Origin: Bdellovibrionales bacterium
GTDB lineage: Bacteria > Bdellovibrionota > Bdellovibrionia > Bdellovibrionales > UBA1609
NCBI GenBank assembly: GCA_965247685.1
Contig: OZ252021.1
Location: 750,001 to 782,000 of the forward strand
DNA length: 32,000 nucleotides
Direction: 5' to 3'
Of the stretch, positions 6,773-22,299 are shown in pieces (positions within the stretch are counted from its first letter, which is position 1; each line of letters opens with the position of its first letter). The position numbers and the translations under genes are program-made. The notes beneath the pieces are model-generated. The model had not been told where the DNA came from. It saw only the letters and a list, made by a program, of their open reading frames with translations, and made no database searches.

Positions 6773-6799
6773 TAAAGTTTTTCCCCAATATTCCGATTG
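6773..6799 (+). promoter_or_regulatory. candidate sigma-28 (FliA)-type promoter upstream of flp
   Basis: TAAAGTTT (6773-6780), an 11-nt spacer, then TCCGATTG (6792-6799), compared with the consensus TAAAGTTT-N11-GCCGATAA. It lies about 22 nt upstream of the flp ATG, with GGAGG at 6809-6813 in between. Confidence 0.35.
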
Positions 6800-6821
6800 A
6801 TAAGTTACGGAGGTATTTTTT

Positions 6822-7013
6822 ATGAAAAACATAAAAAAACATGTGAAAAACTTTTTGAAAGATGAATCAGGTCAAGGAACTACAGAATATATCCTCATTC
6901 TTGTTGCGATTGTCGGTGTTGTAACGTTTTTTGGTAAGGACATTACTGCCATTCTTAGAGGCAAGGTAAGTACATTAGGCACCGCGATTACAAATTTTAA
7001 CCCTAGTCCTTAA
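6822..7013 (+). CDS. flp: Flp-family type IVc (Tad) prepilin
   Basis: 63 aa: MKNIKKHVKNFLKDESG|QGTTEYILILVAIVGVV.... It has a basic leader, the G-x4-EY Flp processing motif and a hydrophobic helix. The FLKDESG..EY segment closely resembles the Caulobacter PilA leader. Confidence 0.85.
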   Translation: MKNIKKHVKNFLKDESGQGTTEYILILVAIVGVVTFFGKDITAILRGKVSTLGTAITNFNPSP

Positions 7014-7026
7014 TTAGAGATTTGTC

Positions 7027-7218
7027 TTGATTACAGAATATATACTTTTGGCGTTGCTCACGATAGGGATATTAACCACAGTGGTAGTCCCTACTCGAAG
7101 TGTTTTTCAAAACGCCACTCCACAGCTTGCCGTTCGTGTGGAAAGATACATTATGACAGGTTATCTGCATAGTAAACTGCATTGTGACACCTTGCCTGGT
7201 AGTTGCTGGAAAGAGTAA
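7027..7218 (+). CDS. Flp-like ORF lacking a leader peptide (possible degenerate or leaderless minor pilin)
   Basis: TTG start, 13 nt after the flp stop. Begins (M)ITEYILLALLTIGIL, i.e. the TEY plus hydrophobic-helix core of a mature Flp. No leader or processing Gly is possible, because an in-frame stop sits at 7015-7017. Confidence 0.4.
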   Translation: MITEYILLALLTIGILTTVVVPTRSVFQNATPQLAVRVERYIMTGYLHSKLHCDTLPGSCWKE

Positions 7219-7299
7219 CGGGTCTTCATTTTAAATTTTTGTTTTCCTTATACAAATTATATTGTTAAAATAACAAGACTTGGAATAAGGGGAAGTCCC

Positions 7300-7842
7300 A
7301 TGAATAATCAGTTGGATTATGATTTTATTTTGACAGTGGTAGCAACACTCATTCTTTTAGCAGGGGTTTTTGATGATCTTCGTTCTCGAAAAATTCACAA
7401 TAAGCTTATTTTAATTCTCATACCTATTGCGATTCTATCAGTTTTTGTTACGAATTTTTTTCGAGTGGATTGGATCTTTGCTTTTAGATCTTTACTTGAA
7501 GTGAGTTTAGCATCTGGTTTCATTGCTTTATTACTGGGTTTAGCTCTTTACATGGCAAAGGTTTTAGGTGGAGGTGATGTTAAACTTTATTTCGTCTTTG
7601 CTCTTGTGGCAGGCATTCAGGCCACTGTAGGAGCTTTAATTTTAAGCTTTATTTGGGGAGGACTTCTTGGTATTTTTATGTCTGTTTTAAAAAACCAATG
7701 GAAAAGCTTGCTCCAAAATATATTCTCTTTGTTCAAATTTCAAAAATTACCGAGGGAAAAACTTCAATTTTTACCATTTTCAGTCGTCTTATTTTTAGGT
7801 TGGATCAGCTTTCAAGTATTAAAAGATCTTAATTTCATCTGA
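7300..7842 (+). CDS. cpaA: A24-family prepilin peptidase CpaA/TadV
   Basis: 180-aa polytopic membrane protein. First catalytic Asp context is VFDDLRSRKIHN and the second is GGGDVKL. Position is directly after the pilin genes. Confidence 0.85.
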   Translation: MNNQLDYDFILTVVATLILLAGVFDDLRSRKIHNKLILILIPIAILSVFVTNFFRVDWIFAFRSLLEVSLASGFIALLLGLALYMAKVLGGGDVKLYFVFALVAGIQATVGALILSFIWGGLLGIFMSVLKNQWKSLLQNIFSLFKFQKLPREKLQFLPFSVVLFLGWISFQVLKDLNFI

Positions 7843-7917
7843 TGCTTAACTTGCACTAAAGTCTGGATAGCTGGTTGAAATAGTGAAGAATATAAGAAAT
7901 ATAATCATTTGGAGAAG

Positions 7918-8214
7918 ATGATGAAAAAAAGAAAAATGACTTGTAATTCTTTTGTTGGTCAAAGAGGACAAGTGGTTGTTGAATATATACTTTTGATGGT
8001 ATTGTTGTTTTCTTTGACTCTTATCGTTTTTAAAGGCTTTGATTTACCATTTAATAAGTTTGTGAATCGTCCTAAGGAGCTTTTTCAAGGGCTTTCTCGA
8101 TCCGGATCTTGGATCAAGTACGAAGAGGCTCGGCCTGGAAATTCACCAGATCTCGATCATCACCCTGCAAAAAAGTCTCATCATCTACAGGTTGAAGGTA
8201 GAACTGTTCGATAA
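7918..8214 (+). CDS. TadE/Flp-like pseudopilin with prepilin-type leader
   Basis: ...KMTCNSFVGQRG|QVVVEYILLMVLLFSLTLIV: G-x4-EY motif followed by a hydrophobic helix. The mature part, about 80 aa, is longer than an Flp and shorter than a typical TadE. The track start is TTG 7909; ATG 7918 or 7921 after GGAG (7911-7914) is more likely. Confidence 0.6.
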   Translation: MMKKRKMTCNSFVGQRGQVVVEYILLMVLLFSLTLIVFKGFDLPFNKFVNRPKELFQGLSRSGSWIKYEEARPGNSPDLDHHPAKKSHHLQVEGRTVR

Positions 8215-8251
8215 GTATTTTGCTTAATAGTGTATATTCTTCATTCTGGAT

Positions 8252-8315
8252 TCAGTTTTTCAATATTTGATCAAAAACTGATAGAAAAAAGCGTTAAACT
8301 TTAATGAATAACGCT
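8252..8315 (+). promoter_or_regulatory. two tandem stem-loops between the pilin/peptidase module and the machinery module
   Basis: TCAGTTTTT (8252-8260) pairs with AAAAACTGA (8273-8281). AGCGTTA (8290-8296) pairs with TAACGCT (8309-8315). Neither is followed by a clear T-run. Confidence 0.3.
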
Positions 8316-8382
8316 CAAAATTCCGAAAAAAGTAATGGGTAGAAATAGGATTTTTAATGCTTAAGCTCCTGAGGAGGATATT

Positions 8383-9210
8383 ATGAGTAAAAATGAAACC
8401 TTAGTTTTATGGTTGAGTGTGGGATTGGCTATTTTTTCCGTCATGTTGATATATAGCTACACTCAAGAAAAATCTGATGAGCTAACAAAGCAGTTTGGAA
8501 CTAAAACCTCAGTGGTTGTTTCAAATCGAGATATTAATGAGATGGAAACCATTGATGAATCTATGATTCAACTGGCCGAAATACCTCTCGATTTTACTCA
8601 GCCTGGTCATGTGACAGATATGGAAGATGCTGTGGGGCTTGTAGCACTCGCTCCTATTCAGGCTGGAGAACAAATATTAAGTAATAAAATTGTAAGACCA
8701 GGTCCGATAACAGGTTTGTCTTTGCAAGTGACTCCTCAAAACAGAGCTTTAACTATTCCTGTGGATGAAATGAGAGGAGTTGCAAAATTGATTAAGCCGG
8801 GAGATCGAGTGGATATTCTTGCGGTCTTACATGTACAAAGCGGAGGATCACCTAAGCATGTCAAAACAGTTTTGCAAGATGTAGTTATTTTAGCAACAGG
8901 TCTGAATATTATGAATGAATTGCCTCGGTTGCACACGAGTTCAGGTTCTAAAGAATTTATTGAAAATATTAGATCCAAAGCTGATTTTTCTACTATTACG
9001 GTTGAAGCAACACCTCAAGAAATTCAGGAGCTCGTGTATATACTGTCCTCCAGCCCCAGTTCTTTATTTATAACTTTGCGCCATCCTACAGACCGATTGA
9101 GAGCAAATGTTCCTTACACAACAAGTTTGGAGCATATTGTAGGTAAAAAACTTTCTCAAGAAGCTAATAAACCCAAAGTTATCACTAGAAGAAAAGTGAA
9201 CTTACAATAA
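8383..9210 (+). CDS. cpaB: Flp pilus assembly protein CpaB/RcpC
   Basis: N-terminal TM anchor, SAF-like segment (VVVSNRDINEMETIDESMI...GEQILSNKIV) and the RcpC region (RALTIPVDEMRGVAKLIKPGDRVDILA). GGAGG RBS before the ATG. Confidence 0.85.
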   Translation: MSKNETLVLWLSVGLAIFSVMLIYSYTQEKSDELTKQFGTKTSVVVSNRDINEMETIDESMIQLAEIPLDFTQPGHVTDMEDAVGLVALAPIQAGEQILSNKIVRPGPITGLSLQVTPQNRALTIPVDEMRGVAKLIKPGDRVDILAVLHVQSGGSPKHVKTVLQDVVILATGLNIMNELPRLHTSSGSKEFIENIRSKADFSTITVEATPQEIQELVYILSSSPSSLFITLRHPTDRLRANVPYTTSLEHIVGKKLSQEANKPKVITRRKVNLQ

Positions 9211-9222
9211 AGGATTTTTCAT

Positions 9223-10671
9223 TTGAGATGTTTTTATTTTATATTTCTTATTTTATGTTTTTCTGCTTCGACTCTCGAAGAATCTATTCCTTTATCTGTA
9301 GGGTTTGATACAGATTTTTCTTTAGATGATGAATGGAAAGGTAAAAAATTGTTATTTGGAGGGACTTATAAAAAGGTAACCGGAATAACGTACGACTCAT
9401 CTAAAAACTCTATCCGTTTTCAGCCGAAAAAAAGAGGTGTAGGTTCTTTGATTGTAAAAGAAGGAAAAAAGATATTAAAGAGATATACCGTCTCTGTACA
9501 AGAAACAGATTTACATCAAGTGGCTCACGAAATTAAATCCCTCCTAGGAGAGATCGATGGCATTGAAATTATTATTATTAACAATAAAGTTGTAGTGGAT
9601 GGAGAGATTTTTATTCCTCGTGATGTTCGGCGGATTTCTAATGTCGTTGGTCAATACGGAAAAAAAGCTGTTTCATTAGTCACTTTGAGTGTTTCTGCTC
9701 AGAATAAAGTAGCTCAGTTTATTGAAAGAGAAATTGGAAACCCTAACATCACTGTAAAAGCAGCTAATGAAACATTTATTCTAAGAGGAACGGTGTCTAA
9801 TCCTAAAGAAAAAGAAGATGCATATATTATTGCGCAACTTTATGTTCCGGATGTAGTTATAGATCCTTCTTTGGGAAAAGCTATTCGAGAGAGAGTGAAA
9901 AAGCAGCCTATTATTAATTTAATAAAAGTGAAACTGCCTCCTAAAAAAGAAGCTAAGCAAAATAAACTGGTGCAATTGATCGTACATTATGTGGAGCTGG
10001 ATAAAGACTACACAGATCAATTTCGTTTTCAGTGGGCTCCAAAGATTGAAGAATCTACAAAGGTGACTTTGGGAAGTCAGATTGGATCTGTTATTACAGG
10101 TACGATTTCGAATTTTTTACCTAAACTGAACTGGGCGAAACAATTTGGCTTTGCTCGTGTTCTCAATAGCTCCAACATTATTGTAGAAAATGGGGAAGAA
10201 GGCTATATCTCTTCAACGACTGAGATTCCTTTTGGCACTTTACAAGGGGCAGATGGTTCTTCCCAGCCCAACACCACTAAAGAGGAGATTAGTTTAGGGA
10301 TTACTCCTACTATCGTAGGTAAAAGGGAAGATGGAGTGCGTTTAACTGTGAACTTTCGAGTGAGATCTTTAGCGGGTACTACTGGTGGACGTCCCATTAT
10401 GAATGAAAGATCAATTAGGACTAAGGTTTATGTTCGCAGTGGCCTGAGTGCTGCTGTTGGAGGCATTATTTCTGATATCGACACTCAAGGATTCAACCGT
10501 GAACCTGCAGGAAGTAATTCCTCAGCAGGTGATCCTATATTTAATTTACTATCCTCAAAGTCATTTCAAAGAAAGAAAAATCAGTTTGTCGTTTTCGTCA
10601 CGCCAGTGATTCGAAGTTCAGCAAGTACAGATGTCGAAAAAATCAAACAAAAATTTAGAATTAAAAGGTAG
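9223..10671 (+). CDS. cpaC: Tad secretin CpaC/RcpA
   Basis: Signal peptide, a BON-like N-domain (FILRGTVSNPKEKEDAYIIAQLY) and a C-terminal secretin domain (RSGLSAAVGGIISD..., PIFNLL...QFVVFVTPVI). TTG start with AAAGGA 7 nt upstream. Confidence 0.85.
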   Translation: MRCFYFIFLILCFSASTLEESIPLSVGFDTDFSLDDEWKGKKLLFGGTYKKVTGITYDSSKNSIRFQPKKRGVGSLIVKEGKKILKRYTVSVQETDLHQVAHEIKSLLGEIDGIEIIIINNKVVVDGEIFIPRDVRRISNVVGQYGKKAVSLVTLSVSAQNKVAQFIEREIGNPNITVKAANETFILRGTVSNPKEKEDAYIIAQLYVPDVVIDPSLGKAIRERVKKQPIINLIKVKLPPKKEAKQNKLVQLIVHYVELDKDYTDQFRFQWAPKIEESTKVTLGSQIGSVITGTISNFLPKLNWAKQFGFARVLNSSNIIVENGEEGYISSTTEIPFGTLQGADGSSQPNTTKEEISLGITPTIVGKREDGVRLTVNFRVRSLAGTTGGRPIMNERSIRTKVYVRSGLSAAVGGIISDIDTQGFNREPAGSNSSAGDPIFNLLSSKSFQRKKNQFVVFVTPVIRSSASTDVEKIKQKFRIKR

Positions 10672-10675
10672 AGTA

Positions 10676-12898
10676 ATGAATCCAAATCATATTATAGGAG
10701 TTATTGGCGGAAAAGGTGGAGTCGGTAAAAGTATTTTTACTGCGAACTTGGCCATGGCTATACAAAAAGAACTTCGCTCTCCAACATTGCTGATAGATTT
10801 AGATAGTAAAAGCTGTGGAGATCAAAATATCATTTTAGGGTTGAAGCCAGTTAAAACTGTATCTCAATTTACTAACTACAAAGGTATTATTTCTCAGAAT
10901 TCACTTCGATCTTTATTTGCACAACATACTTCAGGTTTGTCCTACTTAGGGGCGGTAATGAGTCCGGAACAGATTTTAAAAGGAGATTCTCGTCTTTTTT
11001 CCCAGCAATTAATGAGTTTAAAACAAAACTATAAATATATTTGCGTCGATCTAGGATGTGAAATCAATGATTTACAATTGGAAGTTTTAAATTTGTTGAG
11101 TACTTTGTTTGTCGTTGTGACGCCAGAAATTTTAGTGATTAATCAAACAAGAAGGATTTTGAATGAACTTGTTGCTGCCACATTACCGAGTGAGCTGATC
11201 AATGTTGTTGTCAATAAATACACAAAATCTGCAATTCCATCTTTAACTATTCAAAAAGCTTTAGAGACTCCAATTTTGAATGTTATTCCCAGTGATGACA
11301 GGTTGTCTCTGCATGCTTTGCAAACTTCTCAACCTTTTGTTTTATCTCAACCCCAATCAGCAATATCTCAATCCTATCATAAAATTGTCAGACAGCTTGT
11401 TGGTGGGGTATTACAAAAAAACCAAAATATATCTCGACCTAAAATCAAAAAGAAACCTTTAAATTCCAGCAACAATACACTTCAAAAAGAAGATGAAAAT
11501 TTAGATCCTTTAACTTTGTTAAAATTACAGGTTCATTCTGAACTGGTTCAGGAAATGGATCTGAATAAAGATCTCACAAAAGCCAAAACAAAAGATGCTA
11601 AAGATGAGATTAGAAATCAAGCTGCCCGTATTGTCACTCGACTTGTGGATTCTAAAGCTCAGCACTTATCACGAAAAGAAAGAAGTTTTGTAGTGAAAAG
11701 TGTTTTGGATGAAGCTATAGGGCTTGGAGCTTTAGAAGAACTCTTAGCGGATCAATCTGTGACGGAAATTATGGTGAATGGAGCTTCAAAAATTTACATT
11801 GAAAAAAATGGAAAATTACAACTTTCCCCTGTTGGTTTTACTTCTAATTTACACTTAAAAAATATTATTGAAAGGATTGTAACCCCTTTAGGGCGTCGTA
11901 TTAATGAGAAAGTTCCTTATGTGGATGCACGTTTGACGGACGGGAGTCGAGTTCATGCTATCATAGAGCCTTTAGCTATTGATGGACCTACAGTCACTAT
12001 TAGAAAATTTCCGAGTGAGAGAATTGTGATTGATGATCTCGTTCACAAGTTTGGCTCTCTTACGAAGGGAATGGGTGCATTTTTAAAAATATGTGTGGAG
12101 CAAGGTTTGAATGTGATTATCTCTGGGGGTACTGGATCAGGTAAAACAACATTATTAAATGTACTTTCTGCTTTTATTCCAGAAAGGGATAGAATTATTA
12201 CCGTAGAAGATGCAGCAGAACTTCAGCTTAAACAAAATCATGTGGTTCGTTTAGAAACCAGAAAGTCTAGCGTCGAAGGCACGGGTGAAGTGACTATCAG
12301 AGATCTCATTATTAATTCTTTACGTATGAGACCCGATCGTATTATTGTCGGTGAATGTCGTGATGGCGCAGCTTTAGATATGTTAGCAGCTATGAATACA
12401 GGTCATGAAGGGTCCATGACGACTGTTCATGCCAATAATCCTAGGGAAGCAGTCTCTCGATTGGAAAATTTGTGTTTAATGGCGGGGATGGATTTACCGG
12501 CTAAAGCTATTCGTGAGCAAATAGCCAGCGCCGTCCAATTAATTATTCAAATTAGTCGAATGAGTGATGGCTCTAGAAAAGTCAAAAGTATTACTGAAAT
12601 TTGTGGTGTTCAGGGTGATGTGGTGACATTGCAAGAAATATTTAGATTTAAGGAAACAGGGTTTGATAAAAATAGAAAAATTACTGGACAATTTCAAGCA
12701 ATGGGTCGTGTGCCGACTTTTATTGAGAGATTTGAACGAAGAGGTGTGCATATTCCAAGAGATTTATTTACAACACAGCAATCTATTAGTCCTGCCTCAA
12801 AAAGTCCAAATAAAAATTTAATACGTCCTAAAATATCAGTTCCTCGAGTGATTAAACCTTTTCCAAAAAATAATAAAGATAAGAAGGTGGGAGCATGA
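10676..12898 (+). CDS. cpaF: fused CpaE/TadZ-like ParA/MinD ATPase domain + CpaF/TadA secretion ATPase
   Basis: N-terminal ~260 aa carry the deviant Walker A of the MinD/ParA/CpaE family: IGVIGGKGGVGKS, followed by ...ICVDLG and ...VVVTPE. After a K-rich linker comes a complete CpaF: GLGALEELLADQSVTEIMVNG, Walker A ISGGTGSGKTTLLN, ITVEDAAEL, RMRPDRIIVGECRDGAA and TGHEGSMTTVHAN. It is one uninterrupted ORF. The track start 10631 overlaps cpaC; ATG 10676 lies 5 nt after the cpaC stop. Confidence 0.85.
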   Translation: MNPNHIIGVIGGKGGVGKSIFTANLAMAIQKELRSPTLLIDLDSKSCGDQNIILGLKPVKTVSQFTNYKGIISQNSLRSLFAQHTSGLSYLGAVMSPEQILKGDSRLFSQQLMSLKQNYKYICVDLGCEINDLQLEVLNLLSTLFVVVTPEILVINQTRRILNELVAATLPSELINVVVNKYTKSAIPSLTIQKALETPILNVIPSDDRLSLHALQTSQPFVLSQPQSAISQSYHKIVRQLVGGVLQKNQNISRPKIKKKPLNSSNNTLQKEDENLDPLTLLKLQVHSELVQEMDLNKDLTKAKTKDAKDEIRNQAARIVTRLVDSKAQHLSRKERSFVVKSVLDEAIGLGALEELLADQSVTEIMVNGASKIYIEKNGKLQLSPVGFTSNLHLKNIIERIVTPLGRRINEKVPYVDARLTDGSRVHAIIEPLAIDGPTVTIRKFPSERIVIDDLVHKFGSLTKGMGAFLKICVEQGLNVIISGGTGSGKTTLLNVLSAFIPERDRIITVEDAAELQLKQNHVVRLETRKSSVEGTGEVTIRDLIINSLRMRPDRIIVGECRDGAALDMLAAMNTGHEGSMTTVHANNPREAVSRLENLCLMAGMDLPAKAIREQIASAVQLIIQISRMSDGSRKVKSITEICGVQGDVVTLQEIFRFKETGFDKNRKITGQFQAMGRVPTFIERFERRGVHIPRDLFTTQQSISPASKSPNKNLIRPKISVPRVIKPFPKNNKDKKVGA

Positions 12899-13773
12899 GT
12901 TTTTTTGTTCAAAATGAATGGTTATTATTTACCACAGTTTTTGTGACTGTCCTTATTTTAGGTTATCGATTTTTACCTGGAATTTTAAATTTTATTTATT
13001 TAAAAACATCTTCTTCTCAAAAAGAGGTTCTTCAAATCATAGAAAAAATTGGTATTCAAAAAGATGATAAAAAAACCATCTTTTACATATGGAGTTTAAG
13101 CCTGCTTATGTTTGTTTTGCCTGTTATTGCTACTTTGCCTAATATCCTACTGGGTTTGGGTGTAGGGATTATTTTATTTTTTGTAACATGGACTGGTGTT
13201 CGTATGGTGATGCAGTCTATTTGGAGTCAATATTGCTCCACTTTATCCAACCAATTACTAGAGGGATTGATCATTATGACTAGCAGCTTGAAGGCAGGTT
13301 TAAATGTCACTCAAGCAATGGAAAGAGTGGTGGATAATTTAAAAGGACCTTTATCGAGGGAATTTAATCTAATTTTAAGTAAAGTGAAGCTTGGAATGAA
13401 TCTGAATGATGCCTTGAATGAGTTCATGGATAGAGTGGATGTTCCAGATGTAGTTATTTTCGTTACCTCTGTGAATATTTTAAGAGATACTGGTGGAAAT
13501 TTAGCAGAGACTTTTTCGGTTTTAGCAGAGACTATCCGTTCTAGACAAAAAGTGCAGAGTAAAATCAAAGCCCTAACGGCTCAAGGCATGATGCAGGCAA
13601 AAATCATCAGTGTTATTCCTTTTGTAATATTAGGCATAATGTATTTTGTACAACCTGAGTATACAAACATACTTTTTAGTACGGTTTTAGGCTGGGTTTC
13701 GATCATTTTTATGCTTATTTTAGTCATTATAGGTAGATATATGATGACAAAAATGGCTACAATAGATGTATAG
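12895..13773 (+). CDS. tadB: Tad inner-membrane platform protein (T2SSF family, TadB/TadC-like)
   Basis: T2SSF domain: LKAGLNVTQAMERVVDNLKGPLSREFNLILSKVKLGMNLNDALNEFMDRV...NILRDTGGNLAE, with flanking TM helices. ATGA overlap with the cpaF stop. Confidence 0.85.
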   Translation: MSFFVQNEWLLFTTVFVTVLILGYRFLPGILNFIYLKTSSSQKEVLQIIEKIGIQKDDKKTIFYIWSLSLLMFVLPVIATLPNILLGLGVGIILFFVTWTGVRMVMQSIWSQYCSTLSNQLLEGLIIMTSSLKAGLNVTQAMERVVDNLKGPLSREFNLILSKVKLGMNLNDALNEFMDRVDVPDVVIFVTSVNILRDTGGNLAETFSVLAETIRSRQKVQSKIKALTAQGMMQAKIISVIPFVILGIMYFVQPEYTNILFSTVLGWVSIIFMLILVIIGRYMMTKMATIDV

Positions 13774-13803
13774 GATTAAATTTTAAAGAAAAGGAGTGGG
13801 TGA

Positions 13804-15465
13804 ATGAAATTTGTATTAATGATTCTTGTTTTTCTGACTTATTCAGCATGGTCTCTCGTAGATACGAAAAGTGGGAATTATAAAAAGACTTTTGTAGATT
13901 TTAATCTACAAGGTTCTGCATTTCCTTTAACTTTAGAAAGAACGTACAACTCTAGGTCTTTATATAGAGGGCTGTTTGGTATGGGTTGGTGTTCGAATAT
14001 AGAAACACAATTGAGTGTATTACCTGATAATTCCATCAAGATTGTGGAGTGTGGTGGAGGTCAGGAGATTATCTTTTTACCTCCTAAAGTTTCTCAAAAT
14101 TTAAATTTGCAAGTTTCTAAAATTCTTCAATCAGTGAAAAAAAAGAATAGTGATTTAGATGATAAATATATGAGTCAGTTGAAAAATCAATTAATGAAAA
14201 GCCAAGTCTTAAGAAATGAATTTTTAAGAGCTTATAATGTGAAAGGGCGGCCGAGTGAGCAAAAAATTTATCTAGCAGAAGGGCGAAGTAATGATTTATT
14301 AAAGTACAATAAAAAGGGATGGTTTAGAAGAGTTTTACCTAATGGTATTCAACAGTTTTTCTCTTCTTCTAATGGGAGATTAACGCAAATTTCTGATCTT
14401 TCCGGTAACTATATCAAAATAGTATGGCGAAAAGATCAGGTGCAGTACATGATGGATAATACGGGTCGACGAATAGTTTTTGAAAAAGACAGAGCAGGTC
14501 AAATCAGTAGAGTTAAAGGTGTAGGAAAAGTTTTAGCTTCTTATCTTATAGAAGATAATAATTTAGTTCGAGTGAGGAATCAAAATGGCAGTTACAATTT
14601 TTCTTATGATGAACTTCATAATTTAACACAAATTATTTACCCTGTTCAGGGTAAGAATCGCCCTAAGGAAAGTCTCACTTACGATAAAAAGAAAGATTGG
14701 GTGATGAGTTTTACAAATCAGAAAAAATGTAAAGAGACATATCAGTATAAAACAAATTCTAAAAATCCTAATCATTATTGGACAGATGTGATGAAAAAAT
14801 GTGGTCGACGAGTAACGAATAAAAGTCGCTATGAGTTTTGGAATAAAAAAGGCGCTGGTGGAACTCTTTATTTACATAGAGCTCGTCAGGAGGTAAATGG
14901 GAGTATTCGTGATGTCAGTTATCACTCTACTTTCAAAAGGGTTTCAAGTATTACTCAAAATAATCTTCGTACAAAGTATAATTATTATGAGTCAGGAAGT
15001 AATGTAGGTATGCTGAAGGGAAAATCGAGTAAAACTCAAAAAACTGTTTTTGCGAAGTACAATAATAAGTGTCGCAAACCAACTCGAGTGATTCTTCAGG
15101 CTCTTTCCAAAGGTAAAGTTTCTGAACGGCAAACAATTGATATCCAATATAATGCTAAGTCTTGTTTAATGTACCGAGTTTCTCGATCGGATGGCCGCTG
15201 GGTGAGTTTAGCTCATGATGAGAAGGGGCGTATTCAAAGGATGGAAGATCAATCCGGTAAGGTTATTATGGTAGCTTACAATAATATAGTGAATAAGCCT
15301 AAAAAGATCACTCACAAGGGAGTGGGTTCTATCGAGTTGGTGTATGACTCTAAGGGAGCCTCTCGGCTGAAAAAGGATAATCCTTTAATCATAGGTCAGG
15401 TCTTGTCTGTATTTAATGGATTGATGCAGATTATTTCTCCTGTAGCTCAAGAGTTTAGCGTATAA
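13804..15465 (+). CDS. secreted YD/RHS-repeat protein without recognisable toxin domain
   Basis: Signal peptide, then an RHS-type N-terminal motif (DTKSGNYKKTFVDFNLQGSAFPLTLERTYNSRS...GLFGMGW). Multiple YD-type repeats follow (NGRLTQISDLSGNYI, NTGRRIVFEKDRAGQISRV, NGSYNFSYDELHNLTQIIY, LTYDKKKDWV, HDEKGRIQRMEDQSGKVI, LVYDSKGA). No PxxxxDPxGL core or C-terminal toxin module. AAGGAG RBS. Confidence 0.75.
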   Translation: MKFVLMILVFLTYSAWSLVDTKSGNYKKTFVDFNLQGSAFPLTLERTYNSRSLYRGLFGMGWCSNIETQLSVLPDNSIKIVECGGGQEIIFLPPKVSQNLNLQVSKILQSVKKKNSDLDDKYMSQLKNQLMKSQVLRNEFLRAYNVKGRPSEQKIYLAEGRSNDLLKYNKKGWFRRVLPNGIQQFFSSSNGRLTQISDLSGNYIKIVWRKDQVQYMMDNTGRRIVFEKDRAGQISRVKGVGKVLASYLIEDNNLVRVRNQNGSYNFSYDELHNLTQIIYPVQGKNRPKESLTYDKKKDWVMSFTNQKKCKETYQYKTNSKNPNHYWTDVMKKCGRRVTNKSRYEFWNKKGAGGTLYLHRARQEVNGSIRDVSYHSTFKRVSSITQNNLRTKYNYYESGSNVGMLKGKSSKTQKTVFAKYNNKCRKPTRVILQALSKGKVSERQTIDIQYNAKSCLMYRVSRSDGRWVSLAHDEKGRIQRMEDQSGKVIMVAYNNIVNKPKKITHKGVGSIELVYDSKGASRLKKDNPLIIGQVLSVFNGLMQIISPVAQEFSV

Positions 15466-15476
15466 CGGAGGTTGGT

Positions 15477-15731
15477 ATGTCATTTTCTAAGAAAGTATTT
15501 ATATTAATTGTTATAGGTATTTCCAGTTTAGCTTTTGGTGCTTCAAAAGAAGATGTTCAAACAGAGGCGATAGGTGTGACTCCGCCATGTGAGCATTGTG
15601 GTCCGACTGTCACAGGGGTGCAGCGTAATGATCGTACAAATTGTGATAATCCTCTCTTACCTGAAAGTAAGTGTAGTACTACATCTAAAGAGTCTCTTGA
15701 TGATAAAAAAGATACCAGGGGTATCCGGTAG
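15477..15731 (+). CDS. small secreted Cys-containing protein
   Basis: GGAGG RBS; ATG lies 11 nt after the YD gene stop. Signal peptide MSFSKKVFILIVIGISSLAFG|AS. The mature ~63 aa carry 4 Cys, including CEHC. Confidence 0.5.
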   Translation: MSFSKKVFILIVIGISSLAFGASKEDVQTEAIGVTPPCEHCGPTVTGVQRNDRTNCDNPLLPESKCSTTSKESLDDKKDTRGIR

Positions 15732-15867
15732 AAGATCTGGAGTCCACTTTTTTCGCGTCCTAATTCTTAGAGAAGATTGATGGAGTATAAGGCTATGAAA
15801 AATAGAGAGTGCTAAAGAACCAGAAGAATTTTCTATAATGGGAGTGATATTTTCTTGTTTTTTATAT

Positions 15868-15963
15868 TCATTCTGCCATTCTTTCTGGTAATTGATAGTA
15901 AGACAGCTTTGCAAAAGAAGAAGAGATAAAAAATAAAACCAAAAGTAAAGATAAAAATTTCAT
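15868..15963 (-). pseudogene. truncated duplicate of the 5' end (signal peptide) of the adjacent LRR-like gene
   Basis: Manual translation gives MKFLSLLLVLFFISSSFAKLSYYQLPERMAE*. The first 21 aa are identical to the 16794..16027 gene because both lie in the direct repeat. The next residues are still similar (SYYQLPERM vs SICQLPIGM), then a stop follows. Confidence 0.5.
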
Positions 15964-16029
15964 TTAAAATCCTTGCTTAGAAAAAGGTTGTTAAACCTAG
16001 CCTAACATAACTTAAAAGTGAGTTAACTA
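15902..16029. repeat. direct repeat copy 1 (5'UTR + RBS + signal-peptide module)
   Basis: 128 nt matching 16733-16859. The first ~93 nt are identical; after that there are one 1-nt indel and two substitutions. Confidence 0.9.
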
Positions 16030-16794
16030 GGTTGGATCACGATTAAGGGTTTTGAGAGAGTTGCAAAGCTTAGAAAGAGAACCACTACCTCCAGCACCAA
16101 TCGCTCCATGTTCTCCAAATATTTGGAATTGCCTTTCATAACAACAAGAAGACGGAAACTTATTCACGCCATCTTGATAGCCAATAAACAAAGCATTAAG
16201 CCATTTATTATGATCACATAGATCATCAGGCCAATTTCCATTGACTCCCCAAGCTGGTGCTAAACTTAACACCTGAACCAAAGGAATCTGTTTAAAAAAC
16301 TCAGAATCGGAAATGCCTCTAAATACTTTACTACGTATTTCAAATTCAAGAAGCTGTGGATTCTGGGCGAAAAGCTTGGTCGGTATAGTCTCGATATTGT
16401 CCCCTTCAATTACAACACGTGTTAAGTGCGGAAGCCCATGAAGAAGAGTTTCTGGTATCTGTGATTGATCGGTGCGAATTGTCACTCCCTTTAAGTTAGG
16501 AAAGTGTAAAAGAGTTTTATTTTCCAACTTAAGTGCTATTTTTCCTGACTCACCGTTCATCTCAGAGCTACCATAGAAAATATAGTCCACTCTATGAAGG
16601 TATGGGTCAAAAGCAGAACATCCTTGAGTATTATATTTTTCTAACAATTCATTATATTCTTTTTCTGTAAGTACATTTTCTCTAAGAGACCAATCAATAG
16701 AATCCTGCATCCCTATTGGCAGTTGGCAAATCGACAGCTTTGCAAAAGAAGAAGAGATAAAAAATAAAACCAAAAGTAAAGATAAAAATTTCAT
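16027..16794 (-). CDS. secreted leucine-rich-repeat-like, Cys-containing protein
   Basis: Signal peptide MKFLSLLLVLFFISSSFA. LRR-like units: LLHFPNLKGVTIRTDQSQIPETLLHGLPHLTRVVIEGDNIETIPTKLFAQNPQLLEFEI. C-terminal region has CC and a GAGGSGS stretch. Confidence 0.65.
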   Translation of the reverse strand: MKFLSLLLVLFFISSSFAKLSICQLPIGMQDSIDWSLRENVLTEKEYNELLEKYNTQGCSAFDPYLHRVDYIFYGSSEMNGESGKIALKLENKTLLHFPNLKGVTIRTDQSQIPETLLHGLPHLTRVVIEGDNIETIPTKLFAQNPQLLEFEIRSKVFRGISDSEFFKQIPLVQVLSLAPAWGVNGNWPDDLCDHNKWLNALFIGYQDGVNKFPSSCCYERQFQIFGEHGAIGAGGSGSLSKLCNSLKTLNRDPT

Positions 16795-16859
16795 TTAAAA
16801 TCCTTGCTTAGAAAAAGGTTGTTAACCTAGCCTAACATAATTGAAAAGTGAGTTAACTA
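16733..16859. repeat. direct repeat copy 2 (5'UTR + RBS + signal-peptide module)
   Basis: 127 nt matching 15902-16029. It contains the AAGGA RBS, the ATG (16794) and the first 21 codons of the LRR-like gene. Confidence 0.9.
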
Positions 16860-16917
16860 TTATTATGAATAAAAAGCTCAAAAATGTCAAAAAAAAGAGT
16901 GTAAAAATTACATTTCA

Positions 16918-19311
16918 TTAAAAACCGTGACTTCTTTTTTCATTTTGTAAAAGGTCTCGAACTCCAGGAAACTCTCGATCAATAATTTTAATTGAAAAAC
17001 CTGTTCTTCCTCCCACAATACAATGAGAAAAATGTAGAATATGTCTGTTGATCTGTTTTCTATCCCATCTAAGATAAGGAACGCCATTCCTACGCTTGAC
17101 TACTAAGGAAGCTGTTTTAAGCTCTGTATCTCTTAAATGGCAACATTGAAAGGGAACATCATTACCTTTGCAGTCTTTTGCTCGATTACCCATCACATTT
17201 GGAGCAGGTGGATATATATCATCGAGTGTCGGCCCTTGAGGGTCCATACTGGAAACCCATGAAGTAAGAAGGTGATCAATATTAAAAAGCTTAAAATAAA
17301 CCTCCTCTAAAATTGCTTTCGGGTGAAAATATTCCTTCTGAATAACATTCACCCAGTTTATTTGCTTTTCAGTATAGTTCAGATAAAAAGGAATTTTATA
17401 ACTTCCTGTTTCAAGGAACCCTTGAGGCTTTAGAGGAGGTGGAGGAGCCCGAAGATGTTGTATGTATTCTGGACCCAGATCATCTGCAAAAAGGGGAGAA
17501 GGAGAATTCCTAATTTTGTTTAAAAACTCCTCATCTGCATAATGACCAATATCTGCTGGAACATAGTTAAATATATAATCACCTCGATTATTTTTACTTT
17601 CCATAAGACGAATATAGGCACTCACCATATAGTTAGGCAAAATCGCATAATGGTTCAAATCATACTCATCTGGAGCTATCGCTATCTCCTCTAAAACACG
17701 AGCAGGCAAAGTAAAGATTTTATCTTTCTTCAGTACATAATTATTAGAAGAACCATCCTCGTAAGGTAAGACCATAGCAGAGGTAGAATTATTGTTATTA
17801 ACATCATGGAGCCCATGGAGCTGTTGATAGTTTTGTAAACTTAAGCCTGCATCTTTTGCTCCTCCATTTACATTGACTATTTTTCGAATCAGCTTATTAA
17901 AATAATACTGTCTTTGACCATCTAGTAAACCATAGTTATCGTCATCTCTCTCAAAACTAAGCGAATAAACAGGGTATCTAGATGTTGGTGGTATAGTAGG
18001 TAATAGTGCATTTTTATATGGACCAAATGATGATCCAAAAGGCTTAGAGTAAGCTTCTGCTACCAAGGAAATAGGCTCCCTAAAAGGAAAAAATATCGCA
18101 CTCTTGTAATTAATATGTAAAAAGATTTGGATGTAAAAAAAATTCTGTGTATTTTGCTTTTTCATAAAACCAACCACTACTGGTTCATTCTTGATTGTCT
18201 TTAAGCCATCACATATATTGCTATTACTATTATCAGTATGCCTTTGAATCAGATTGCAACTTGTACCTGAACTACAAGTCTGAGCTTCACAAATTTCAAA
18301 AATAGTTTTGATCTCTCTTTCACAAGCACTTTGGGAATTGTTTCTCCCTCTATCTTGAACATAGAACAAATCGAGATCAGGGGGGTTAATTGTTATCCAT
18401 TCAAAATATTCATCAAAATTTCCCTCATTAGAGGTCTTTGTATAAATTATTCCATTTCTACTCCTATAACTCTCATACACAGGATAAGTGAAATTCTTAG
18501 TAATTGTATTCTTCACTCCCACATCAATATAAGCCCCTCCAAGCTCTCTTTTTTTGCTAATAATTTCATTAAAATATTTTTTGATAAATTCCTTTCTTTT
18601 TTTCTGCTCTTCGTAAAAACTTAAATATGTTGTAGAAGCTACCATCCAGTTCACGTAACCTGAATACCTACAGGAATCTCTTATACTACTTATCCTGTTG
18701 CTGACTTCTGCATTCGCAAAACGAGCTCCGTAAGTACTACCACCAGCTAGTGGAGGAAGATCGTATGGCTGATCAACCCTCTGGCAAACATTGTCAGTAC
18801 CGTTTTTGCCTGGAATATCAAAATAAGGATGCCATACACAAAATGCGAAAGGGCAACCACCACCTCCACCTACTCGACGACTGTGACCTTGATGACAGTC
18901 TGTTATGGGTGAAGGATCGAATGCTCCCGTAGAACATCCGCTAAGAGTGTTTGGGCACACAGTTTTATTCTTAGAAGGAACGGATCTTGGTCGAGCTATA
19001 CCAATCAGATCCATGTTTGCAGTAGCGCCCCCTGGATTTTGGTAAGCTCCTATATTTCCTAAAACATTGTATCGATATGAAAAAAGCTTGTAGTTTTGTC
19101 TTAACTGATAATTCAAATGAGACAAAACACTGAGAGTCTCAGCTTGCCTTTGAGCCGCATACATTGCACCAATATCTACAGAATTTTGAACATTGATCTT
19201 ATGATGAACCATAAGACCAACTCCCATCACCATTCCAAAAATGGTCAGAGAACCTAGAATAAATAATATACCAAAAATAGAGAGAAGACCTTTTGAGCGA
19301 ACCATTTTCAT
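16918..19311 (-). CDS. large Cys-rich membrane-anchored protein with TadG-like N-terminus
   Basis: 797 aa. The N-terminus KGLLSIFGILFILGSLTIFGMVMGVGLMVHHKINVQNSVDIGAMYAAQRQA fits the TadE/G-like 'Tad' N-terminal pattern: a hydrophobic helix, then D-x-G...LQNA-DAAALA-like sequence. The remainder has many Cys clusters and no family I recognise. Convergent with the tad operon. Confidence 0.55.
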   Translation of the reverse strand: MKMVRSKGLLSIFGILFILGSLTIFGMVMGVGLMVHHKINVQNSVDIGAMYAAQRQAETLSVLSHLNYQLRQNYKLFSYRYNVLGNIGAYQNPGGATANMDLIGIARPRSVPSKNKTVCPNTLSGCSTGAFDPSPITDCHQGHSRRVGGGGGCPFAFCVWHPYFDIPGKNGTDNVCQRVDQPYDLPPLAGGSTYGARFANAEVSNRISSIRDSCRYSGYVNWMVASTTYLSFYEEQKKRKEFIKKYFNEIISKKRELGGAYIDVGVKNTITKNFTYPVYESYRSRNGIIYTKTSNEGNFDEYFEWITINPPDLDLFYVQDRGRNNSQSACEREIKTIFEICEAQTCSSGTSCNLIQRHTDNSNSNICDGLKTIKNEPVVVGFMKKQNTQNFFYIQIFLHINYKSAIFFPFREPISLVAEAYSKPFGSSFGPYKNALLPTIPPTSRYPVYSLSFERDDDNYGLLDGQRQYYFNKLIRKIVNVNGGAKDAGLSLQNYQQLHGLHDVNNNNSTSAMVLPYEDGSSNNYVLKKDKIFTLPARVLEEIAIAPDEYDLNHYAILPNYMVSAYIRLMESKNNRGDYIFNYVPADIGHYADEEFLNKIRNSPSPLFADDLGPEYIQHLRAPPPPLKPQGFLETGSYKIPFYLNYTEKQINWVNVIQKEYFHPKAILEEVYFKLFNIDHLLTSWVSSMDPQGPTLDDIYPPAPNVMGNRAKDCKGNDVPFQCCHLRDTELKTASLVVKRRNGVPYLRWDRKQINRHILHFSHCIVGGRTGFSIKIIDREFPGVRDLLQNEKRSHGF

Positions 19312-19632
19312 GTTCTACCTCATTTTTGTAAGATGTGTCAGCTCAAGTCGTAACTATTATAGTTTTGTTTTTTCTTTATTTTAGTGTTTTGAAACTCTTA
19401 TCCTCTCCAATTACTTATTTTTTTATTGAGCTAAGATGTCTTATTTTAACCTGTCATCATGGACAAAAATTGTCTTTCAATGAAAAATAAATGTACAAAT
19501 TAGGTCTATTTTGGGAGATATTTTTGCTTGTAAAAATGGTAAGATAAATATCTAAATACTTAATTTTACTGAATAATTAGATATGATGACCTTGTATTTG
19601 CTTCTATAGAAGTGAAACAAGGAGTGTGAATT

Positions 19633-20286
19633 ATGTTTTACCAACTGTACGAACAAACAATGAGGCAGCTGACACAAACTTTGAGTCATAAGTTTGAGAT
19701 TCCTGTGAGTTACTCCAGTGTGTCTCAATTGAGATTTTTGAAAAAAAATAAAAGATGGCAGTTAGAAAAGGAGCAATTTATTATCCCTTTATTTAAAACA
19801 GGGGGCTGTATTCAAATCCAATCTAAAGTAAAAGATCAACAATTAGACGAGATTTATGATCATGTACAATGGACTCTGAGTTCCTTAGAAAAGGTATTTC
19901 AAGAGCACGGTGTAAGTTTATTTGATCAAAATAATTTTCCCGTCTTCATTCCTAATTCTTCTATTCAAGACTCCGTCCAAATCGCTTTGAGTTTATATGA
20001 AAACTCTTCAGCACAGGCTTTCATTCACTTGAATGCAAGAGTTTTTGATCCTTCTCTCTTGGCTGAGGATATGCACAATACTTTGATTTTGATTTCGAAT
20101 ATAGAAGAATTATCTGATCAGAATCAGAAATTTTTGTCTGAATATTTGACAAAAAATGATCAAGGACCTTTATTGGTAATTTCCTCAACTCTACCTTGTG
20201 AGTTATTTCAGAAAAAGATTCAGTCGTCTTTAATGCAATGTCTCAATTGTATGGAGAAAGGTGACTTGTCGATAAATATTATTTAA
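19633..20286 (+). CDS. hypothetical protein; C-terminal half resembles a vestigial sigma-54-activator AAA+ core
   Basis: 217 aa. PVFIPNSSIQDSVQIALSLYENSSAQAFIHLNA and NTLILISNIEELSDQNQKFLSEYL line up by eye with vLI.GEsGTGKe.vAraiH..S...fi.lNC and GTLFLDEIeeLs..Q.kLL..L. The Walker A and Walker B residues are replaced. GGAG RBS. Confidence 0.45.
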   Translation: MFYQLYEQTMRQLTQTLSHKFEIPVSYSSVSQLRFLKKNKRWQLEKEQFIIPLFKTGGCIQIQSKVKDQQLDEIYDHVQWTLSSLEKVFQEHGVSLFDQNNFPVFIPNSSIQDSVQIALSLYENSSAQAFIHLNARVFDPSLLAEDMHNTLILISNIEELSDQNQKFLSEYLTKNDQGPLLVISSTLPCELFQKKIQSSLMQCLNCMEKGDLSINII

Positions 20287-20302
20287 TTCTTAATCCACTA
20301 TT

Positions 20303-21220
20303 ATGAAGGATTTTTTAAATCATTGTCTGGGTTCAAACTGGTCAGTTCATCCTTTAAAAGGGGATAGTGGAGAACGTCAGTATTCTCGTATCGTCGTGCC
20401 TCCAAATAAAACTTTTATTTTGATGTCTTATCCTCATGAATTAAAAAAAAGATTCAAGAGTTTTATTTCTATGCAGAATTTGTTGAACCAAAAAGGAGTT
20501 CTTGTTCCAAAAATATTTTTCACAGATGCTCTCAACGGACTCATTCTTATTGAAGATTTGAGTGACTTTAGTTTAGAGCAATTCTATCTTAAACATCGTC
20601 AACTGACCTATCATGAAGTTGCTCTGAATCAGTTAATTTACTTGCAAAATGAAATTAAGAATCATGTTTTTGAAAAAGATTTCACTTTCAATCAAAGTTT
20701 GCACGAGATGATCACCTCCTACCAACAATTCCATTTTTCTTTCTTGGAGTCAGAAAAAGTCAAATTATTTGAAGAATTTCAAGATATTAGTGAGAAGTTA
20801 TCATCGCAAGAACTTGTTCCCAGCCATCGAGATTTTCATTCCAGAAATTTGTATATTCAAAAAGATCAAATCTATATGATCGATTTTCAAGATGCAGGAC
20901 GCTATCCTATTTATTATGATTTAGTGAGCCTTGTTGAAGATGTGTATGTTCATCTTTCAGAGCGTGAAAAGAGCTTACTGATGGAATATTATAGTCGCAA
21001 AAAAGATCAATCTATTGATTCTACGTCTTGGCATAGAACTGTATGCCAGCGCTTATTTAAAGCTACTGGGAGCTTTATGAGTTTTTATAATTTGAGAGAT
21101 CAAAAAACTCATTTGAAATATATTACTCCTGCTTTGAAAACAGTAGAGTCTTCTTTGATCCAGCTCAACAGCTATCCATATTTTTTAAAATATATTCAAA
21201 CACTGCTGAGTCAATTATGA
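20303..21220 (+). CDS. amgK: aminoglycoside-phosphotransferase-fold sugar kinase, AmgK-like (anomeric MurNAc/GlcNAc kinase)
   Basis: PLKGDSGERQYSRI; catalytic loop HRDFHSRNLYI; IDFQDAGRYPIYYDLVSLVED. This matches the COG3178/AmgK signature HRD-HSRNL...IDFQDA...YDL.SL. ATGA overlap with the next gene. Confidence 0.7.
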   Translation: MKDFLNHCLGSNWSVHPLKGDSGERQYSRIVVPPNKTFILMSYPHELKKRFKSFISMQNLLNQKGVLVPKIFFTDALNGLILIEDLSDFSLEQFYLKHRQLTYHEVALNQLIYLQNEIKNHVFEKDFTFNQSLHEMITSYQQFHFSFLESEKVKLFEEFQDISEKLSSQELVPSHRDFHSRNLYIQKDQIYMIDFQDAGRYPIYYDLVSLVEDVYVHLSEREKSLLMEYYSRKKDQSIDSTSWHRTVCQRLFKATGSFMSFYNLRDQKTHLKYITPALKTVESSLIQLNSYPYFLKYIQTLLSQL

Positions 21221-22215
21221 AAGCTTTGTTACTGTGCGCAGGGTATGGTTCTCGCTGGCAGTCTTATAATCAAAAGCATTCTAAAATATGCATCCCGTTT
21301 CTTAATATCCCTATAGTTGGATATCCTTTAAAGATATTAGAAGATATTGGAGTTCGGCATATTGTCATGAATACTCATCATCATGCTCAGCAGGTGCAAA
21401 GTGAGATTCAAAATTTACATATCTCTATTCCAAATCAGTTTTTTTATTACGAAGAACAAATATTAGAAGGTCTTGGAACTTTAATACAAAATCAATCTTC
21501 TTTTAAAGGAGAAGAAAATATAATTTACATGAACGGAGATTCTATTTTTTTATGTGATGAATTTTTTCAATCTATGAAAGAAGAGCATGATCGAAATAAT
21601 GCGTTTATTACTTTTTTAGTATCTCCTTCGTCTGATTCTAAAGTGCAAAGGATATGGGCAGATGGAAACTATCAGATACAAAATGTAGGGATGACTCCTG
21701 AAAAAAGTGAACTGAAAGGATATTTTTTTTCAGGGTTTTGTTTAATTCGATCAGAATGTTTTGATTTATTTAAGAAAACCGATCGTCATCTTTTTAGAGA
21801 TTTTGTTTCTCGTTACTCATCTAGCTGTTATGTTCATGTGAGAAAGGATTTAAAATTTTTTGAAGTAGGAAATTTAAACTCATACCTAAAAGCTACTGAA
21901 AAATGTTTACAGTATTTATTTGATGAACCCTCCTCTAAAGAATGTTCTCTGTTAAAAAAGACTATTTCTCGATTTTGTCCTTCTTTTAATCGGTTAGAAG
22001 GTTCTTATTATTACTCTCAGACTGTATTTCCTGAGAAACCTCAAGAGTATGTGCTTTGTGGATCCCATGTGAAAGGTTTAGAGCATTTAAAAATTAAAAA
22101 CTTTGCTGTTATTGGAAATCATGTCAATATTATAAAACCTTCTACTATAGAAGGTGGAGTTGTGGGCTCTTATTACTCATTAAATCAGTCCATAAATCAG
22201 ACCCTTAGACTCTAA
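21217..22215 (+). CDS. sugar-1-phosphate nucleotidyltransferase, MurU-like, with C-terminal extension
   Basis: N-terminal MKALLLCAGYGSRW (nucleotidyltransferase G-loop) and NGDSIF. The C-terminal ~100 aa include hexapeptide-like VIGNHVNIIKPSTIEGGVVGS. Translationally coupled to the AmgK-like gene. Confidence 0.6.
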   Translation: MKALLLCAGYGSRWQSYNQKHSKICIPFLNIPIVGYPLKILEDIGVRHIVMNTHHHAQQVQSEIQNLHISIPNQFFYYEEQILEGLGTLIQNQSSFKGEENIIYMNGDSIFLCDEFFQSMKEEHDRNNAFITFLVSPSSDSKVQRIWADGNYQIQNVGMTPEKSELKGYFFSGFCLIRSECFDLFKKTDRHLFRDFVSRYSSSCYVHVRKDLKFFEVGNLNSYLKATEKCLQYLFDEPSSKECSLLKKTISRFCPSFNRLEGSYYYSQTVFPEKPQEYVLCGSHVKGLEHLKIKNFAVIGNHVNIIKPSTIEGGVVGSYYSLNQSINQTLRL

Positions 22216-22299
22216 ATAACCGTCATCCATTTTTGTCTATATCTAATTGGTTGGAATGAAGTTGATTTTTGTTCTTATTTCAGATTTAATAGCCACGAG

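Follow-up and report, generated by a model that had tools for sequence, protein, structure and literature searches.

Tight adherence (Tad) pilus loci are syntenic in all Bdellovibrio and like organisms (BALOs)(PMC5430801). In Bdellovibrio bacteriovorus the tad locus adjoins the hit locus, tadC is encoded apart from it, a tip protein is the product of a lone tadG, and a TadZA fusion carries a Walker A-like K/RGGXGXS/T motif (bioRxiv 10.64898/2026.07.08.737194). The operon is FliA-dependent in Bdellovibrio, and its Flp2 product (Bd0118) is a "trimmed" Flp that opens MXXEY (PMC5430801). In the eight genomes compared by Avidan et al., flp2 was reported only from Bdellovibrio loci, which are missing tadV, while tadV was found in the loci of Halobacteriovorax and Bacteriovorax (PMC5430801). 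The hit genes bd0108 and bd0109 are co-transcribed with bd0110 (tadB) and bd0111 (tadA), and their two products bind each other; Bd0108 is small and secreted, and Bd0109 is a periplasmic or secreted YD/RHS-repeat protein that is apparently essential, attempts to delete bd0109 having failed (PMC3818213). Bd0108 (101 aa) has a signal peptide and a CXXC motif, is intrinsically disordered and binds Bd0109, which has a mass of 62.5 kDa and consists of a signal peptide, an N-terminal domain and ~13 RHS repeats (PMC4267844). Here we compare these systems with a Tad-type gene array in a 32,000-nt stretch of DNA from an uncultured, small-genome member of the Bdellovibrionales (OZ252021.1, positions 750,001–782,000, forward strand; hereafter the window, whose positions serve as coordinates throughout). 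The array is a further example of the Bdellovibrio design, and no new machine.

Ten co-oriented genes are tightly packed on the forward strand at 6822–15731, or 6773–15731 when a promoter-like motif is included. The spacers between them, from flp1 to the gene for an 84-aa peptide, are 13, 81, 66, 168, 12, −41, −4, 30 and 11 nt. Gene assignments come from a listing of open reading frames (ORFs) and from profile searches of the window's products (Pfam, NCBIfam/TIGR). In order, the features of the array are:

6773..6799, + strand: sigma28 (FliA)-type promoter-like motif, TAAAGTTT, 11-nt spacer, tCCGATtg, as read from the sequence
6822..7013, + strand: flp1, Flp-type prepilin, 63 aa (PF16982 Flp1_like, E 2.6e-9)
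7027..7218, + strand: flp2-like, "trimmed" leaderless Flp, 63 aa (MITEY followed by a hydrophobic stretch, read from the sequence)
7300..7842, + strand: tadV prepilin peptidase, 180 aa (PF01478 Peptidase_A24, E 3.6e-11)
7909..8214, + strand: small prepilin-like minor pilin candidate, 101 aa (GQ-x3-E motif, hydrophobic stretch, conserved C-terminal HP)
8383..9210, + strand: rcpC/cpaB (TIGR03177, E 1.9e-38; RcpC and SAF domains)
9223..10671, + strand: rcpA/cpaC, outer-membrane secretin (PF00263 Secretin, E 4.3e-17; BON domain)
10631..12898, + strand: tadZA fusion, 755 aa (CbiA/ParA-MinD-like domain, 20–265; T2SSE region, 317–655, with the T2SSE match of E 7e-61 at 364–645; TIGR03819, E 6e-94)
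12895..13773, + strand: tadB, the lone T2SSF platform gene of the locus (PF00482 T2SSF, E 3.7e-20, one domain)
13804..15465, + strand: Bd0109-like YD (RHS)-repeat protein, periplasmic or secreted, 553 aa (DUF6531, E 5e-13; RHS_repeat)
15477..15731, + strand: Bd0108-like small secreted peptide, 84 aa (signal peptide, TEA, CEHC, C-terminal xxRGIR)

We conclude, with a probability of roughly 0.85, that this region is a BALO-type orthologue of tad locus 1 of B. bacteriovorus together with the adjacent hit locus (bd0108–bd0119). By the published descriptions, the HD100 locus and the window share flp1, an MXXEY flp2, minor pilins, rcpC, rcpA, TadZA, a single tadB and the Bd0109-like and Bd0108-like genes, and neither has tadC or tadG in the core locus; the window also has a FliA-type promoter-like motif. 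A first-pass annotation of this DNA, made from the letters alone, had placed every gene it named correctly, spacings included, as the ORF listing and profile searches confirmed, and had proposed that they form an undescribed Tad-like apparatus. That proposal is not supported, as the same architecture has already been published for B. bacteriovorus (PMC3818213, PMC4267844, PMC5430801, bioRxiv 10.64898/2026.07.08.737194).

The same design recurs among relatives. A scan of one genome per species yielded 57 related loci, and exact-protein look-ups added two more (L058 and L059), giving 59 with an RHS-type match; the genomes in which the scan detected the locus were all MAGs (metagenome-assembled genomes). 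The genes cpaB, cpaC, tadZA, tadB and RHS are collinear in 49 of the 59, with a median gap of ~65 nt between tadB and the RHS gene, and the order from flp to RHS is kept in about 50 Bdellovibrionales species. MAGs of Bdellovibrio's own family, the Pseudobdellovibrionaceae, have the same locus (L028, L032, L040 and L048). In the nearest relatives, L058 and L059, the RHS proteins are 78% and 76% identical to that of the window; their contigs, of 1.16 and 1.11 Mb, are collinear with it from a histidine kinase gene to the nuo genes, except for a convergent block that faces the array.

The array opens with the sigma28-like motif, which ends 22 nt before the ATG of flp1. Upstream of flp, the window and 10 of 32 related loci have a TAAAG..CCGAT pattern, for which chance would give 0.015 occurrences per 290 nt; going by this pattern, a FliA-type promoter probably stands ahead of flp1. 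The Flp1 prepilin carries the processing motif G/QGTTEY (in the context ...ESG/QGTTEYILILVA), and flp1 was located upstream of tadV in 34 of the 49 collinear loci by tblastn. The next ORF begins MITEYILLALL..., which fits MXXEY, and no leader is possible on it because its start lies only 13 nt past the flp1 stop. It had no Pfam or NCBIfam match; M-x-x-E-[YLF] equivalents were present in 12 of the 13 relatives inspected. TadV keeps both of its Asp motifs (DD at residue 25 and GGGD at residue 90), and tadV was detected in 43 of the 49 collinear loci. In the window, and likewise in most relatives, tadV and a flp2-type gene coexist.

The fourth gene encodes the small prepilin candidate. An alignment of 15 orthologues of this 101-aa family showed G20, Q21, E25, P55, G66, W68, H85 and P86 to be invariant. 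The ORF itself matched nothing in Pfam or NCBIfam, and its orthologues found weak Pfam support (Flp1_like in 3/15, TadE in 1/15). Because scans of the orthologues of this ORF, the flp2-like ORF and the 84-aa peptide gave only marginal Flp1_like, TadE or N_methyl matches, the TadE/F labels used here are based on motif and position. The product had earlier been called a TadE/Flp-like pseudopilin, a label whose TadE part is based on the motif.

The conduit and motor genes follow. As called, the tadZA ORF overlaps the end of cpaC; its real start is probably the ATG at 10676, immediately past the cpaC stop. The fusion carries the Walker motifs GKGGVGKS and GGTGSGKT, and KGGVGKS at residues 28–34 fits the K/RGGXGXS/T motif of B. 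bacteriovorus TadZA. In every complete related locus the match to it spanned at least 0.90 of its length. All 49 collinear loci have one tadB copy between tadZA and the RHS gene, and a second platform paralogue (TadC) was found neither in the window nor in those 49 loci. Domain searches thus recovered the single fused CpaE-CpaF ATPase and the single T2SSF gene that had been noticed at first reading. It was equally correct that TadC, TadD, RcpB and a normal TadE/TadF pair are missing: none was found within the whole 32-kb window by ORF listing, profile searches or tblastn. TadD, RcpB and TadE/TadF are accessory rather than core Tad parts. The absence of parts from the locus is a clade trait and no sign of a compact new machine.

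The array ends with the hit-like pair, the RHS gene beginning 30 nt past tadB and the small-peptide gene 11 nt past the RHS gene. The RHS protein belongs to a tight family of ~550-aa proteins (306 matches), the named members of which are all from Bdellovibrionales or Oligoflexia MAGs. Its AlphaFold2 (AF2) model, with a mean predicted local distance difference test score (pLDDT) of 87, combines a beta domain at the N-terminus with an insert of three helices, ~30 YD strands and a helix at the C-terminus. The protein resembles Bd0109 in size (553 aa versus 62.5 kDa), signal peptide, arrangement of an N-terminal domain and ~13 YD repeats, and position directly after tadB. A sequence search of the PDB with the RHS profile returned generic Rhs and teneurin cores only, and no Bd0109 structure. 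A full-length homologue of this short RHS protein, 26% identical and with no tad genes nearby, is present in Pseudomonas fluorescens PS918 (L052:10001-11626).

The 84-aa peptide had no Pfam or NCBIfam match; it resembles Bd0108 in its position, its signal peptide and its CXXC motif. In at least 38 of the 49 collinear loci the RHS gene has a small ORF with a signal peptide immediately after it, and these ORFs share TEA, a cysteine pair (CxxC or CC) and SxG[RKQ] at the C-terminus. A hidden Markov model (HMM) of the near-subclade peptides recovered those of L058, L059, L001, L002, L006 and L063 at E values of 1e-11 to 1e-37. Because this recovery fades outside the near subclade, we consider the peptide to be fast-evolving, in agreement with the failure of a published search for a Bd0108 homologue in Halobacteriovorax. 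In one relative the peptide gene is duplicated in tandem (L001:10023-10667; 83 and 102 aa), with TEAEGPGRCAYCDEH kept in both copies. The genes for the RHS protein and the small Cys peptide do not sit beside the tad core by chance: their products are its dedicated partners. The first-pass annotation had suggested that four accessory proteins (the RHS protein, the peptide, an LRR-like protein and a TadG-like protein) are dedicated to the machine, and synteny with the tad core (collinearity in 49/59 loci, a small ORF in at least 38/49) supports this for the first two.

For the other two it does not. They are encoded on the reverse strand, in the convergent block that faces the array:

15865..15994, − strand: remnant of a second leucine-rich repeat (LRR) paralogue (one copy of a 118-nt repeat; 32-codon ORF, signal peptide identical)
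16027..16794, − strand: secreted LRR-like protein, 255 aa (LRR_5, E 0.0027, 18 bits against a cut-off of 27.7; 24-residue periodicity)
16918..19311, − strand: candidate TadG-like large minor (tip) pilin, 797 aa, 16 Cys (family PF13400; no Pfam match of its own)

In L058 and L059 the small-peptide gene is directly followed by genes for a 211–214-aa protein, an APH kinase, an NTP-transferase and DciA, and the LRR/TadG-like block is absent from the site. Past the small-peptide gene, DNA homology with these two loci is interrupted until window position 19,595, so that ~3.9 kb around the convergent block is specific to the window's genome. The comparison of gene neighbourhoods, which had been named as the test of whether these genes travel with the tad core, therefore went against the LRR and TadG-like genes.

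The LRR gene is accompanied by a stump. A 118-nt direct repeat (15877–15994 and 16708–16825, 90% identical) accounts for what had been described as a duplicated signal-peptide module, and the 32-codon remnant, which encodes MKFLSLLLVLFFISSSFAKLSYYQLPERMAE* only (15963–15865, − strand), is what survives of a second LRR paralogue. The intact LRR protein is 34–37% identical to four tandem paralogues beside the TadG-like gene in L061. Tandem LRR_5-like paralogues follow the TadG-like gene in both L061 (four, 8001–14810) and L062 (five, 8001–13978), at housekeeping sites; the LRR_5 matches of these paralogues elsewhere are mostly weak or faint, with one unmarked. The LRR gene is thus linked to the TadG-like gene and not to the tad core, and the window's LRR gene and 118-nt stump look like a shrunken version of such a tandem array.

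The TadG-like family comprises 16 proteins at E ≤ 0.001 (the window sequence and 15 homologues); its distant members carry the N-terminal domain of Tad/TadG, PF13400. This domain was matched by 9 of 15 aligned family sequences (best E 9e-9), a set that includes the window copy, which itself had no PF13400 match at E < 0.1. The best-conserved stretch of the family alignment is the N-terminal ~90 residues, and the AF2 model of the window protein shows a helix at residues 7–84 (pLDDT ~80) and a second long helix at 194–251. No fold match was found for the model in the PDB (best E 0.31). The earlier description of the 797-aa protein as TadG-like is borne out by this family membership. The position of the gene varies among relatives. 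In the genome of L058, a 49%-identical homologue (L060) lies ~650 kb from the tad locus; in L061 and L062 the gene sits among housekeeping genes; in L001, L002 and L006 it is 3 kb downstream of the tad locus; and in L063 (6814–12976) the tad locus itself contains it, on the opposite strand, with cpaB on one side and three small pilin-like genes on the other. We call the cassette mobile because TadG-like genes change place among genomes with tandem LRR paralogues alongside. The TadG-like and LRR block is probably a cassette for a tip or adhesin that moves separately and lies beside the locus by chance in this genome. In L060 (6095–6723), the stretch from the alternative complex III genes to the TadG-like gene contains five 42-codon ORFs in tandem ahead of a 390-aa ORF.

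Several observations weigh against orthology with the B. bacteriovorus locus, or against parts of the picture built on it. The window locus contains tadV, unlike Bdellovibrio. Two pilin-like genes of ~170–200 aa, found in the interval between the small pilin gene and cpaB in 41 other loci, are missing from the window, L058 and L059, and the distance from tadV to cpaB is ~0.5 kb in these three against 1.3–3.2 kb in all 41 others (compare window 7843–8382 with L006:2761-4576). The two extra families have marginal Flp1_like, TadE or N_methyl matches at best, and the relatives' TadE/F-like proteins found no match better than E 0.58 in the window DNA by tblastn. Orthology to Bd0108, Bd0109 and Bd0111 was assigned from architecture, synteny and published descriptions, and the small peptide is recognisably homologous within the near subclade only, being marginal beyond it. 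A scan for promoters and terminators gave 48 promoter-like sites against 46 in shuffled sequence and was uninformative about the ends of the operon. The AF2 model of the TadG-like protein is of low confidence (pLDDT 61). Finally, the organism is uncultured, known from a contig of ~1.3 Mb, and its predatory habit is proposed by analogy with Bdellovibrio.

Could the array instead be an undescribed, compact Tad-derived machine that truly lacks TadC, TadD, RcpB and TadE/F and employs the RHS, peptide, LRR and TadG-like proteins as dedicated cargo or tip adhesins? The absence of those parts from the 32-kb window and the true loss of two pilin-like genes at the locus in the window's subclade would fit such a machine, as would a search for a relocated TadE-like gene with the L006 protein as query, which gave no match on contigs of the size of the window's genome or its nearest relatives. 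That search, however, was of low sensitivity (18 matches only, with an insensitive word prefilter). Moreover, the same set of genes has been published for B. bacteriovorus, in which tadC and tadG lie elsewhere and the machine is complete (bioRxiv 10.64898/2026.07.08.737194); the RHS and small-peptide genes are the hit locus (PMC3818213, PMC4267844); and L058 and L059 do not have the LRR/TadG-like block at this site. We therefore consider a new machine very improbable. Even less credence is due to the idea of an Rhs polymorphic toxin (the RHS protein) and its immunity protein (the small ORF) that merely lie beside the tad genes. Like the Rhs/YD toxins (type VI secretion system (T6SS) RhsA and Tc toxin BC), the RHS protein has a YD-repeat beta-sheet spiral and a DUF6531 N-terminal domain, with RHS_repeat matches; its fold matches T6SS Rhs effectors at E 1e-20, and a small ORF stands immediately downstream, as in toxin–immunity pairs. 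Yet it covers only about half of their ~1000-residue closed shells (TMq ≤ 0.55), the PxxxxDPxGL autoprotease motif is absent from it and from all 61 family members checked, and the family's C-terminus, with its conserved helix, is kept to the final residues and shows no variable toxin tip. The small ORF encodes a signal peptide, which cytoplasmic immunity proteins lack, the synteny with tadB is strict across 49 loci, and Bd0109 has been reported as probably essential and not as a toxin (PMC3818213). The missing DPxGL motif, the conserved C-terminus and the signal peptide on the small ORF led us to reject this candidate.

A different question is whether the convergent block has anything to do with the Tad machine, or is a strain-specific insertion of surface-protein genes with no functional tie to it. 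The break in homology that brackets the block in comparison with L058 and L059, the housekeeping surroundings of the TadG-like homologues in L060–L062 and the want of a PF13400 match in the window copy itself all speak for such an insertion. Against it stand the TadG-type N-terminus in 9 of the 15 aligned family sequences and the L063 member inside the tad locus beside pilin-like genes. In addition, the lone tadG of B. bacteriovorus is required for efficient predation (bioRxiv 10.64898/2026.07.08.737194), and the Kil pilus of Myxococcus uses TadEFG-like tip clusters that are scattered (PMC12075869). On balance we think an unrelated insertion unlikely, and favour a mobile cassette that encodes a candidate tip pilin. 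Identity among the TadG-like proteins is 31–49% in relatives whose RHS proteins are 63–78% identical. More speculatively, and with rather little confidence, we suggest that the TadE/F-like pilins were lost and that the tip consists of the fast-evolving TadG-like protein and a copy-number-variable LRR array, a swappable cassette for recognition of prey or host that has been relocated beside tad/hit.

How the orthologous locus might work is carried over, for function and protein interactions, from the B. bacteriovorus literature. We infer that a single operon, probably running from flp1 through the bd0108-like gene, is driven by the FliA-type promoter, and our assignment of roles to the TadG-like and LRR proteins is of the same kind. 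TadV would cleave Flp1 and the small prepilin at G/xxxxE, and the MXXEY Flp2-like protein would require no cleavage. The TadZA ATPase would power polymerisation on the TadB platform, with TadC probably encoded elsewhere, and its TadZ half would place the motor at one pole, as happens via RomR in Bdellovibrio. The fibre would pass through the RcpA secretin, aligned by RcpC, and the TadG-like large pilin would prime and tip the filament. By analogy, the periplasmic YD-repeat protein and the CxxC peptide may be a regulatory pair that couples the state of the pilus to the predatory or growth decision, and the product of the locus may be a polar Kil-like Tad pilus for prolonged attachment to, invasion of or killing of prey (or host) cells.

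The locus differs from that of B. bacteriovorus in having its own tadV, where Bdellovibrio, without tadV, uses PilD; in this it matches the Halobacteriovorax/Bacteriovorax form. It also differs, as judged by published descriptions, in the loss of the two ~170–200-aa pilin-like genes, shared with L058 and L059, and in the TadG-like and LRR cassette that abuts it. The Kil system of Myxococcus xanthus, a Tad-like apparatus for contact-dependent killing, belongs to the same Tad subclass, which occurs in predatory bacteria and is reported in Myxococcales, Bdellovibrionales and Bradymonadales, and its large TadG/KilN-like tip pilins are encoded in scattered, exchangeable clusters (PMC8460266, PMC12075869). 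These parallel the wandering TadG-like genes seen here, as does the lone tadG of B. bacteriovorus. In contrast, the parts of the Kil descriptions drawn on here mention neither a TadZA fusion nor an RHS/small-peptide pair, and the Kil tip genes come as KilL/M/N trios, whereas the window's TadG-like gene is accompanied by LRR genes. The canonical Tad/Cpa loci (Aggregatibacter flp-tadV-rcpCAB-tadZABCDEFG and Caulobacter pilA-cpaA-F) share with the window Flp, an A24 peptidase, RcpC/CpaB, the secretin, the TadZ/CpaE and TadA/CpaF functions and a T2SSF platform. The window locus departs from them in its fused TadZ-TadA, its one platform gene, the appended RHS and small-peptide genes, and the absence of TadD, RcpB and TadE/F from the window.

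The remaining genes of the window are housekeeping genes (histidine kinase, FAD oxidase, NusB, nuo genes, RecO, DciA and a tyrosine recombinase). Upstream of the array, at 851–1986 on the reverse strand, are genes for a TPR protein and a weakly FlgN-like protein; together with the sigma28-like motif at flp1, these fit an organism with flagellar regulation. Downstream, at 19633–22599, are genes for a 217-aa protein (weak Sigma54_activ_2 match), an APH-family kinase, an NTP-transferase and DciA, which follow the hit-like pair in many relatives; the kinase and NTP-transferase are possibly an AmgK/MurU-like pair for cell-wall recycling. A tRNA scan of the window found none, and the sole Rfam match (SNORD36, 17271–17352, − strand, 30.4 bits at the gathering score, E 0.41), inside the TadG-like coding sequence, is a chance match. 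In L059 (1788–4105) the FAD-oxidase gene is split (292 + 109 aa), tadV is just 128 aa long and the flp2-like ORF is uncalled, which reflects either gene decay or an assembly error. The window's genome and its nearest relatives (L058, L059, L006 and L063) lie on contigs or chromosomes of 1.08–1.40 Mb, very small for Bdellovibrionales, and the names of many related MAGs (RHO3, APA, CAR1, IP30) suggest bins from invertebrate or sponge metagenomes.

The locus reveals no new kind of machine. It extends the tad-plus-hit design, the RHS/small-peptide pair included, beyond cultured Bdellovibrio to ~50 species-level Bdellovibrionales lineages, among them some with genomes of 1.1–1.4 Mb. The conserved residues of the RHS family and the TEA...CxxC...SxG[RK] pattern of the peptide provide comparative constraints on this pair, and the TadG-LRR cassettes are a lead on possible customisation of the pilus tip.

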